Positions 15,001 to 18,000 of a stretch of 64,000 nt of DNA are shown here, in pieces. How positions within the stretch are numbered: position 1 is the stretch's first letter; each line of letters starts with the position of its first letter. The position numbers were made by a program. Where the stretch lies: assembly GCA_943354835.1 (NCBI GenBank), contig CALRDH010000001.1, positions 115,005 through 179,004 on the forward strand, given 5' to 3'. Source of the stretch: a candidate division WWE3 bacterium (GTDB taxonomy: Bacteria; Patescibacteriota; WWE3; 2-01-FULL-39-13).

Positions 15001-18000
15001 GAGCAAGAAATGCAGTAGGATTCAAAGCTGCCAAACCTTTAAAGGAAGCAGTTAAGTAATATTACTAACTTATTGCAATACGAGGCGGGCGGCATTTATG
15101 CCGCCCGCCCTTAGTATCTCCACTTATTTTCCAATATAATTTTTATACAAATCAGTTTCTTTAAATTTCCGAAGCCAATTTCGATACTTAATAATTTTAA
15201 TTCCAAAATATTTGTAAATAGATTTGTACCAACTCAAAGTTTCTAAAAAAACATCATTTGATTCTGTAACAACTAGAAAACAAAAAACAATAACAGTTAA
15301 TAAATAGCCAATTGGATTACGTATGAAAAATACTAAATAGCCAAAAAGTGGCACAGAAAAAAACACCTTACCTTTTATATACGAACTCTTTATTTGCCAT
15401 GGATCATTCGTCGTGTTTGCATCGCCTTTTGTTTTATATAAAGTAGACGGACTACCAACTGCCTCAATTTCAAACATCACATCTGTAATTCTATGAGAAA
15501 TTAATTTATTAACATCGTACGGATATGTAAAAGTTATTACATCCGAGACATTATATAAATCACGCCTGGAACTAATTAACAAATCTCCCTTTTTTATACT
15601 AGGCGACATTGAATTTGATTCAACAACATACAAGCCATAGTTTTTGAGTACACTAAACCTAGAAAAATATCCTACAGTGCAAACAAAACAAAGAATCATA
15701 GATATAAATATTTTTATAATTTTTTTCATAGTTTATTCAATAATGCCGAGGTGAGCTCCCCTCGGCAAAGAAACTCATAATCCTAAACCCGTAAATGTAA
15801 AATCATAAACCGCAGACATGCCTTTATTTACTTCGGTCAACCCTGCGCCATCAAACCTTAAAAGATAGCCTTTTGTTTCACCAGCAGCAATTTCGCCCAT
15901 TGGGAAAGTATCATTTTTCATTCTTAATATTGTGTCCCTACCAAAAGAATCGCCTTCTTCTCCTGCATCTACGGCACCATTATTATTTGCGTCATTCCAA
16001 GCGCTAATTTCAATGTAAATATCATCACGTAGAGTATTCACATCACTTACATAATCTGCCGAAGCAACAACATCCAAAGCAGTAGTTCCGTCGTTATGTA
16101 TCTTAAGCGGGCTTTCAGCAACCCACGTTGGACTAATATTTTCAAATGTTGAACCAGGAACTGTATCCGCTAAATTAGACGTTTCCGCACCAAGCGACAA
16201 ATTTTTCAAAATCTTCAAAGCAGTATTTGAAGTTCCTGGCGTTCCCCCACCGCCACCTTCAAATATAGTTGCAACAGAAAACGAATTTCCAGCAACCTTT
16301 ACAGTTTCCTCAAACACAGCAGACGTAGCCTGAAAAAGACCTGACAAAGACAAACCAATAATCGCCAAACTTGTTATAAATTTCTTCATTTTTCTCACCC
16401 CCTTTTAAATTAAATATTTAAACAACTCGTAAAGCGAGTCTACAAAATAGGATTAATTAATCTAAAAACGAATCGAAAAATTTTATGAAATGATTTCTAA
16501 CAGAATAAGAAAAAGGGAATGAATGCAAAGAGGCGGCGCCGATTTATCGGCGCCGCCAATGAACAAGACATCAAACCTAAAATCTGCGTTTAAGATTTAG
16601 CATCTGCTATACGAACACGTATGACACTTTATACATCCTTCGGTCTCTACAAGCGTCATATTTCCACATTCAGGGCAAACGGATGCATTTTTAAATACTG
16701 CACTCTTATTTACAAAAACTTTGTCCTCAGTCGACTCGGAAGCCTCACTAAACAAATCTTTTTGTATAAACTCGTCTCCGCTTTCAAGCATTGCGGAAAC
16801 ACTTGTTTCTTCTAATCTATCGCTTAAATTAAGCTCGTTAATTAAAACCCTAGCAACAGCGTCTGGAATACTTGCAACTCTTTCAGGACCAAAGCCAATA
16901 CTTGCAGATCCACCGATTCCACGAAGTTGATATGCAATTTCTTCTAAAGCTTGATTTGGATCCGCGGCACTTCGTAGCCATCCGCTAATAAGTCTTCCAA
17001 TTGCTTCAGAAAATGCTGCTGAATCGCTTCCACTTTTTCCAATCATAATAAAAACCTCAAATGGCTTTTTGCCTGTTTCGCCGTTTCTGTTAACAGTTAC
17101 AAAAGCTTTTCCAAATGGTGTTTTTACTTCATGTGTTCTTCCAATAACAACAGCTGGTCTTGGCCTTTTGTGTCCAAGATCTAAAGGCTGTGACGAAGCA
17201 TTCGCATCCTTGTCTTTTTTCTGTGCTGTCTCTTTAGTTTCAAGAACAACCTCATCCCTAGATCCTGTTACATAAACTGTAAGTCCTTTGCAACCAAGAT
17301 CCCAAGCAGAAATATAAACATTTTTAACGTCTTCTTCAGTTGCTTCAGTAGGAAAGTTACAAGTTTTCGAAATTGAATTATCAACAAATCTTTGAATAAC
17401 AGCTTGCATCCAAACATGTTCACTTGGCGCAATATCAGCTGAAACTACAAAAGTATTTTTAATTCTTTCTGGCAAACCTTTTATATCTTGAATTGTGCCT
17501 TTTTCAACTGCAGTTTCTATTATTGATTTCTTGAAATCAGGATCAAGCCCTGATTCATCAATTGCTTTTTGGAAAGATGGACTAACATAAGTTAATCTTA
17601 AATTTTCATCTCCTCCAGCAGCTTGATAAACGTTTCTAAAATATGCCAATGCAAAAACTGGTTCACAACCATATCCTTCAAGACCTGAAATTGTCGCCGT
17701 TGTTCCAGTCGGAGCGACTGTAAGTTGTGTTGAGTTTCTTATTCCGAATTTCTTCAATTGAGTCTGAACTTTTACCCAATTAACTGATGGCCGATTTAAT
17801 TTTAATTTGTGTTCAACCAAAGAAGTTGGAATTGTCCACTTCAAATCGTCCTTATCATAAATGCTGCCTTTTATGCCAGGGAATGCTCCTTTTTCTTCTG
17901 CCAAAGCTATACTTTCAAGCATCGAATGATATCTTATAAATTCAGTAACTTGAGAAGTGAAATCTAGTCCTTCAGCACTTCCATATCTAATATTTAGTTG

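Follow-up and report, generated by a model that had tools for sequence, protein, structure and literature searches.

In Pyrodictium abyssi, the TasA-superfamily subunit AbpX (about 200 aa) is encoded in a minimal locus with a TIGR02228 peptidase gene directly after it (bioRxiv 10.64898/2026.01.04.697558). The mature AbpX protein is acidic, has a conserved aromatic in its second position and an acid in its fourth, and undergoes calcium-triggered donor-strand assembly; members of its clade were found in Thermoproteota, Bacillota and Chloroflexota, not in the CPR (bioRxiv 10.64898/2026.01.04.697558). The archaeal protein AbpA is a TasA homologue that also assembles by donor strands, with no dedicated peptidase nearby (PMC9245690). 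Homologues of PF12389 in Patescibacteria were reported by Wang et al. in 2022 (PMC9245690). We found no paper on TasA-like fibres in the CPR beyond this Pfam survey. The CPR, or Patescibacteria, are very small and mostly uncultured bacteria, many of which are thought to be attached to other cells, and their surface structures other than type IV pili are poorly known.

The locus described here, found in candidate division WWE3, belongs to a known type of system (a TasA-superfamily subunit with an ER-type signal peptidase), in a form that is diverged and has so far been unannotated. Likened by its published description, the AbpX locus is similar: both consist of two genes, a subunit followed by a TIGR02228-type peptidase, and both subunits are acidic, with the aromatic in second position and the acid in fourth. 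Compared with the tapA-sipW-tasA operon of B. subtilis, the WWE3 locus lacks a TapA-like gene, with no anchor or tip gene found near it either, and the subunit precedes the peptidase. At 180 aa, the mature WWE3 subunit is smaller than TasA, which has neither its Gly-rich linker nor its EF-hand-like loop, and the hosts differ, a CPR bacterium here as against a Firmicute. Similarity with the AbpA bundling pili, the CanA/CanX cannulae and the Saci_0406 threads exists at the fold level only and is within the noise of generic beta-sandwiches.

Two minus-strand ORFs, 15775-16398 and 15124-15729, were listed in the window, i.e., the whole 64-kb stretch of DNA that was analysed. They encode the subunit and, downstream of a 45-nt spacer, the peptidase (Table 1). 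The earlier note had placed the pair at 15124-16398. The two adjacent same-strand genes proved real and conserved, with 22 homologues of the subunit (46-100% identity, 32 invariant alignment columns) and 20 of the peptidase, and the coordinates were correct, but the proposed subunit length of 207 aa most likely was not. Because the GTG at 16398 falls within a Shine-Dalgarno-like run (AAAGGGGGTGA), with the ATG at 16389 well spaced behind it and also used in public gene calls, the product is most likely the 204-aa protein. The start of the peptidase is ambiguous, with public gene calls beginning 10 codons later at ATG 15699 (191 aa); we kept 15729, since the 201-aa form gives the usual basic N-terminus (MKK) ahead of the membrane helix.

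Table 1. Features of the subunit-peptidase locus, in window coordinates; functional assignments are predictions.
Feature	Position	Strand	Basis or remark
Shine-Dalgarno-like purine run, AAGGGGGTG	16396..16405	-	Direct reading; 6-9 nt ahead of ATG 16389; includes GTG 16398
Subunit gene, 204-aa precursor (TasA-superfamily, SipW-cognate-type; putative fibre subunit)	15775..16389	-	ORF; 22 WWE3 homologues; AF2 pLDDT 86
Signal peptide, residues 1-24 (MKK, 16-residue hydrophobic core, QATSA)	16318..16389	-	AF2 helix 2-22, low-confidence break 20-24
Putative donor strand at the mature N-terminus, residues 25-42, VFEETVKVAGNSFSVATI	16264..16317	-	AF2 strand 27-38, pLDDT about 88
Gly-rich flexible linker, residues 43-56, FEGGGGGTPGTSNT	16222..16263	-	Joins N-terminal strand to beta-sandwich core
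EF-hand-like 12-residue loop, D133-A-N135-N-N137-G138-A-V140-D141-A-G-E144	15958..15993	-	Between two core strands; residue conservation
C-terminal strand AVYDFTFTG, residues 193-201	15787..15813	-	AF2 strand 192-203; conserved
Intergenic GC-rich hairpin, 8-bp stem, -16.3 kcal/mol	15744..15767	-	RNAfold; within the 45-nt spacer
Peptidase gene, 201 aa, ER/archaeal-type (SipW-class) signal peptidase I	15124..15729	-	TIGR02228 match; SEC11A/C matches; AF2 topology
Predicted catalytic Ser40 codon (SNS-M-SP box)	15610..15612	-	Nearly invariant; aligned with SEC11A SGSMEP box
Predicted catalytic His79 codon (S-H-R-I box)	15493..15495	-	Invariant; aligned with SEC11A I-V-H-R-V
Asp103 codon (TKGDAN box)	15421..15423	-	Invariant; aligned with SEC11A TKGDNN
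12-bp GC hairpin, about -30 kcal/mol	15083..15110	-	Just 3' of the peptidase stop codon

The upstream boundary of the unit is the nrdJ terminator at 16532-16557. At the other end, where the unit is convergent with the HU gene (14787-15059, plus strand), the 12-bp hairpin marks its 3' end. The intergenic hairpin was not called by the consensus terminator scan because it has no T-run. A hairpin stands at the same intergenic place in seven of eight loci, with unrelated sequences, and it is a candidate attenuator or mRNA 3'-stabiliser that would give a high subunit-to-peptidase ratio. The consensus scan detected no sigma-70-like promoter for either gene, including in the spacer upstream of ATG 16389. 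The GC content of the locus is unremarkable, and neither a second signal peptidase nor a paralogous subunit was found in the 64-kb window.

The sequence of the subunit indicates a precursor with an N-terminal Sec-type signal peptide. The SipW-cognate-type N-terminus that the earlier note quoted is present (MKKFITSLAIIGLSLSGLFQATSA↓VFEETVKVAGNSFSVATI), and when a relaxed regular expression for it was run on all 151 window ORFs with 60 aa or more, the subunit ORF alone matched. Cleavage is predicted between A24 and V25, and A24 is found in 21 of the 22 homologues. The motif T-x-A↓x-F-x-[DE]-x(5)-G-x-x-F is present as T22-S-A24↓V-F26-E-E28-T-V-K-V-A-G34-N-S-F37, so that the mature protein has an aromatic residue at position 2 (F26) and an invariant acid at position 4 (E28). 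In the hhalign alignment with B. subtilis TasA, T22-S23-A24↓V25-F26 is in register with T-W-A↓A-F, T-S-A↓V-F-E-E stands opposite T-W-A↓A-F-N-D, and the motif continues column for column with TasA (T-W-A↓A-F-N-D...A-T-F). Residues A24, F26, E28, G34 and F37 are conserved, with E28, G34 and F37 invariant or nearly so among the subunit homologues.

The mature subunit (180 aa) is acidic, with a net charge of about -15. The linker that follows the putative donor strand was modelled with low AF2 confidence (pLDDT 53 for block 41-50, and below 50 for segment 46-50); its length and sequence vary among homologues, and it is missing in more distant family members. Within the C-terminal strand, A193 and F197 are invariant and Y195, D196, F199 and G201 nearly so. 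A check of composition and motifs found no Cys, no HExxH and no LPXTG in the subunit, and a single His. The modelled fold would fit TasA without being diagnostic of it, and a Foldseek search against the PDB was indecisive.

Wherever an organism is named, the subunit homologues all belong to candidate division WWE3, and none of the 22 carries a Pfam domain or has been named for a function, the current annotation being 'hypothetical protein'. When 1.84 billion representatives were searched exhaustively with the family profile, no more than 77 proteins reached E<=0.001; some 50 were full-length (~200 aa), and the rest were very long proteins matching only a short calcium-loop-like segment. The family is small and narrow. 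The HMM searches that the earlier note had proposed, TIGR04088 and Peptidase_M73 (PF12389), came back empty. TIGR04088, a 34-position HMM with a curated cutoff of 19 bits, matched neither the window subunit nor its first 55 residues alone nor the 22 WWE3 homologues, even at E<=10, and PF12389 likewise matched none of these at that threshold. The window subunit also fell below the TasA equivalog, neither NCBIfam nor Pfam gave a relevant match for it or its close homologues, and a profile of the WWE3 homologues found nothing among the PDB sequences. The negative HMM result is meaningful, because B. subtilis TasA, used as the positive control, scored well above the cutoff (38 bits on TIGR04088, and 513.8 bits on the TasA equivalog). 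The WWE3 subunit thus differs from Bacillus TasA in failing all three models, as the peptidase differs from SipW in failing the SipW equivalog.

A connection with TasA was recovered through more distant relatives, so the reading of the subunit as a TasA-like, SipW-cognate-type protein holds only by way of the extended family and not by a direct match. The distant full-length members begin with classic N-termini of this type (ATYAAFTNSATITSNTFSTG is an example), and their ending is FDFxFxGTT..Q, the counterpart of the C-terminal strand of the window subunit. TIGR04088 matched 19 of the 40 proteins in this extended family (best E 1.2e-6), PF12389 matched eight weakly (best E 0.0012), and the TasA model matched four weakly. 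The TIGR04088 scores are graded: P0046 (28.5 bits), P0041 (27.3 bits) and P0122 (20.0 bits) pass, P0054 (17.1 bits), P0033 (16.7 bits) and P0035 (11.9 bits) fall short of the cutoff, and the WWE3-like members have no match. P0122 shares 40% identity with the window subunit over 97% of its length and was reached by the extended-family profile at E 2.5e-71. The same profile reached PF12389-bearing proteins with the names 'TasA family protein' (Moranbacteria) and 'SipW-dependent-type signal peptide-containing protein' (Parcubacteria) at E 7e-9 to 1e-6, and hhalign aligned the extended family with B. subtilis TasA over 112 columns (81% probability, E 1.2e-5).

These comparisons argue with moderate strength for profile-level homology with TasA/PF12389, largely in the N-terminal third. 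Considering the graded TIGR04088 scores, the reach of the profile to PF12389 proteins and the TasA alignment, the WWE3 clade is, as judged from sequence, a branch of the SipW-cognate/TasA class, so diverged that the curated models no longer pick it up. The earlier note had treated a missing SipW-cognate HMM match as decisive against its reading; this asks too much of the model, since TIGR04088 scores fall off by degrees within one homologous family. That the two genes encode a TasA-superfamily substrate and its cognate ER-type peptidase is, in our judgement, highly probable.

The EF-hand-like loop of the window subunit (DANNNGAVDAGE, residues 133-144) was scored against D-x-[DNS]-x-[DNS]-G-x-[ILV]-[DE]-x-x-E (PROSITE PS00018 / DxDxDG class). 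It matches the first 12 of the 13 PS00018 positions, as do the loops of 19 of the 22 WWE3 members, and all 13 positions are matched in five of the 22. In the WWE3 alignment, D133, G138 and E144 are present in all 22 sequences and N135 and N137 in 21 each, and the loop residues are largely retained across the extended family. No Pfam EF-hand model matched the window subunit; each EF-hand model gave weak matches on the loop in one to three distant family members, and the extended-family profile found only non-significant EF-hand-loop matches among the PDB sequences. From the motif, a role of the loop in binding extracellular calcium and in stabilising or gating assembly is probable.

The peptidase scored 68 bits on TIGR02228 (sigpep_I_arch, cutoff 51.85), with residues 5-152 on profile positions 3-149 of 158. 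On the SipW equivalog (NF046067), it scored 64.9 bits against a cutoff of 190, and is therefore SipW-like, not SipW. Its proposed ER/SipW class was thus supported while its identity with SipW was not, and the colinearity with SipW that the earlier note had described, including the C-terminal membrane helix, was confirmed over NF046067 positions 17-162 of 189. In the AF2 model, an N-terminal membrane helix (3-25) and C-terminal membrane helices (about 129-157) flank the catalytic domain, followed by a basic tail; a hydrophobic stretch, VFFSVPLFGYLVFFIRNPIGYLLTVIVFCFLVV, can be read directly in the sequence. Alignment of 16 homologues showed that H79, R80, the TKGDAN box and D109 are invariant and that S40, M41 and P43 are nearly invariant. 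His instead of Lys at the catalytic position is the mark of ER/archaeal-type signal peptidases, and the enzyme is predicted from its sequence to use Ser-His(-Asp), not the bacterial Ser-Lys dyad. A catalytic role of these residues in SipW was reportedly established by Tjalsma et al. in 2000, in J Biol Chem. The peptidase family profile reached SEC11A/C at E 1e-20; bacterial P-type enzymes came only at E 0.013 or higher. Among solved structures, the closest by sequence (E 1e-20) are human and yeast SEC11 and the archaeal signal peptidase I of the Ser-His type, and the SGSM-P, HR[IV] and TKGD-N boxes align. In contrast to these relatives, the window enzyme stands alone as a bacterial membrane protein, is not part of a multi-protein complex and has a long basic tail at its C-terminus (residues about 158-201).

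Conservation of the pair across relatives was also borne out. The WWE3 order FtsH-(NrdR)-NrdJ-[subunit]-[small ORF]-HU-RNase Y-RecX-RecA is held down to 46% identity, and the small ORF is an intact peptidase in loci L002, L004, L006, L009 and L011. The same pair lies between RadC and ClpB/RF-1 in another Patescibacteria lineage (L012 and L013), and in Moranbacteria and Parcubacteria a homologous peptidase is found one or two genes downstream, in larger clusters. P0113, a relative of the peptidase (110 bits on TIGR02228), sits after three tandem PF12389 genes. Overall, an intact peptidase is adjacent to the subunit or within two genes of it in 10 of the 12 distinct loci examined, window included. 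Because the pairing recurs in three unrelated gene neighbourhoods, it goes far beyond chance, and the same pair in different surroundings is strong comparative evidence for a functional unit. Two loci are exceptions: in L010 the neighbour is only the C-terminal half of the peptidase (E 2.3e-14), with the Ser and His boxes lost, and in L001 it is unrelated (E 0.5). Since both loci keep the subunit together with its motif, a different peptidase can presumably take over there. The C-terminal extension of P0113 had been read by eye as a fused SipW-cognate signal; it gave no TIGR04088 match, and this reading was dropped.

The recurrence of the pair also bears on what the two genes do. Two unrelated genes could have come to lie between nrdJ and hup by chance, and in favour of this each has its own downstream hairpin and no sigma-70-like promoter was detected for either; pairing in three genomic contexts and four CPR lineages leaves this explanation with almost no probability. 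A more serious alternative is that the peptidase is the general signal peptidase of the cell and the subunit an abundant secreted, non-polymerising monomer, i.e., a calcium-binding beta-sandwich serving as an adhesin, carbohydrate-binding module or surface coat. However, the profile links lead to the TasA/SipW-cognate class, not to CBMs or GOLD domains, and a peptidase type that travels with TasA-like genes in several unrelated neighbourhoods would be unexpected for a housekeeping enzyme. The strand with its flexible linker and the rule of an aromatic second and an acidic fourth residue fit characterised donor-strand fibres, and we consider the monomer reading unlikely.

The remaining alternatives concern catalysis. 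The weak matches of eight distant family members to Pfam Peptidase_M73, which is named after the camelysin protease, could suggest that the subunit is a secreted metalloprotease of the camelysin type and not a structural protein. This reading was rejected because no catalytic motif is present: the HExxH motif and Cys are missing and there is only one His. No family member reaches a protease-type match either, and TasA, the PF12389 member that has been studied most, is structural, a fibre protein (PMC9674648). The chance that the subunit is such a protease is very slight. For the peptidase, a mainly non-catalytic role as an assembly chaperone, like that of Streptococcus pyogenes SipA/LepA in pilus polymerisation, is also quite improbable, as Ser40, His79, Asp103 and their boxes are intact in the window and eight other loci and are invariant or nearly so, and by sequence the family resembles the catalytic SEC11A/C (E 1e-20) much more than SipA (E 0.013).

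We therefore return to the reading of a processed, TasA-like subunit. By its sequence, the 204-aa precursor is exported by Sec via its N-terminal signal peptide, and the membrane-anchored peptidase (Ser40/His79/Asp103) would cut it after Ala24, as suggested by the TasA register and the gene linkage. Cleavage would leave an acidic beta-sandwich core to which the mature N-terminus V-F-E-E-T-V-K-V- is attached through the Gly-rich linker. If TasA, AbpA and AbpX are a guide, the N-terminal strand could then enter the sheet of the next subunit by donor-strand complementation, giving chaperone-free extracellular fibres; we consider such donor-strand fibres slightly more probable than a subunit that does not form them. 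To judge from its motif, the loop D133-E144 would probably take up extracellular calcium and stabilise or gate this assembly, and the intergenic hairpin probably holds the subunit in excess over the peptidase. Taken as a whole, a two-gene module of a secreted TasA-superfamily fibre subunit and its processing peptidase, with a calcium loop and a hairpin-set ratio, appears reasonably likely. A more far-reaching possibility, which we regard as doubtful, is a self-sufficient, chaperone-free two-gene fibre system in which the EF-hand-type loop inserted in the beta-sandwich acts as a calcium switch, freeing a self-docked N-terminal strand for polymerisation outside the cell. Ultra-small and probably host-dependent CPR cells might then grip partner cells or each other by such fibres, and the L010-type remnant might be a non-catalytic assembly factor like streptococcal SipA.

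Other TasA or SipW-dependent proteins of the CPR (Moranbacteria, Parcubacteria and 'Patescibacteria group'), annotated by PF12389 or TIGR04088, match the WWE3 protein in size and in the class of peptidase linked to them, but they are recognised by the curated models whereas the WWE3 clade is not. Since an entire clade falls below both models, surveys based on Pfam and TIGRFAM undercount the TasA superfamily. The Moranbacteria and Parcubacteria loci are also larger, with Big_7/LTD and other secreted proteins, whereas the WWE3 locus consists of two genes among housekeeping neighbours that stay the same. What sets it apart is how small it is, its constant place in the core genome of WWE3 and the EF-hand-like loop. 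The locus points to a second and very cheap route to surface or matrix fibres, requiring two genes and kept at the same housekeeping position across WWE3. The loop may represent a third way, after the cannulae and AbpX, of building calcium into the TasA superfamily.

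A stable hairpin lies 3' of the stop codon of the subunit gene in seven of the eight WWE3 loci examined (the window, L001, L002, L004, L006, L009 and L011). Its stem ranges from 8 to 18 bp, and the sequences are completely different between loci, so conservation is seen in the structure but not in the sequence. The remaining locus, L010, has a 12-nt spacer after the subunit gene, without a hairpin. The hairpin may serve as an attenuator, or it may stabilise the mRNA of the subunit. On the other side of the gene, a short inverted repeat (ACTCG-CTTTA-CGAGT) was found about 35-50 nt 5' of the start codon. 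No sigma-70-like promoter was detected in the spacer holding this repeat, which could possibly be an operator or a piece of an unconventional promoter.

In two divergent WWE3 lineages, represented by L010 and L001, no intact peptidase gene directly follows the subunit gene. Using a profile of nine intact peptidases for comparison, we found that the next ORF of L010 matches through its C-terminal half alone (E 2.3e-14) and has lost both the SMSP and HRI boxes, while that of L001 gave an E-value of 0.5 and is unrelated. The subunit gene itself and its A-x-[FL]-E-E-T motif are still present in both lineages.

Table. Locations of features in the window and in related loci
Feature	Location	Strand	Remark
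Stable hairpin 3' of subunit stop codon	window 15744-15767	-	
Short inverted repeat ACTCG-CTTTA-CGAGT	window 16425-16439	-	
tmRNA gene	window 25577-25957	+	Rfam 109.5 bits
ORF next after subunit gene	L010:4643-5161		partial peptidase match
ORF next after subunit gene	L001:6652-7101		unrelated to peptidase
Big_7/LTD-domain protein region, TasA-like locus	L014:6535-8523		Moranbacteria/Parcubacteria pair
Big_7/LTD-domain protein region, TasA-like locus	L015:8239-9969		Moranbacteria/Parcubacteria pair
Three tandem PF12389 (TasA/camelysin) genes, then P0113	L016:3043-6005		GCA_040960375.1

The TasA-like loci of Moranbacteria and Parcubacteria (L014 and L015) share a Big_7/LTD-domain protein of 576-662 aa, and both also encode several secreted-looking proteins that lack annotation. 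Roles as tip, anchor or minor subunit are possible for all of these, and the two-gene WWE3 module differs in lacking such candidates. At L016, the protein encoded after the tandem PF12389 genes, P0113 (334 aa), belongs to the ER-type signal peptidases. A second hydrophobic segment, together with 'GLTHAYFTKSISFGGNVFSV', opens its C-terminal 150 residues. By eye, this part looks like a fused SipW-cognate signal and beta-rich domain; TIGR04088 gave no match to it. A canonical extended-family member (P0046/P0100) falls in a 90% identity cluster with NCBI HUV47227.1, which is labelled Candidatus Bathyarchaeia archaeon; either the family has a cross-domain distribution, or the MAG contains a binning error.

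About 20 very long proteins of 1,100-4,900 aa (P0056, P0063, P0069 and P0072-P0099) also match the family profile, with the match limited to positions ~124-148, which correspond to the EF-hand-like loop. Each contains up to 14 separate loop-matching stretches; the proteins are probably giant, surface-located and built with repeats of a calcium-binding loop. Within the window, the 12-position EF-hand pattern has a sole other match, DFNKDGHVTVAD, which falls in the plus-strand ORF at 629-1360 (also given as 626-1357).

Neither Rfam nor ARAGORN found a tRNA gene in the 64-kb window; the only feature returned by either was the tmRNA gene, which encodes the tag peptide AKNANVFADADVNAYAFA.
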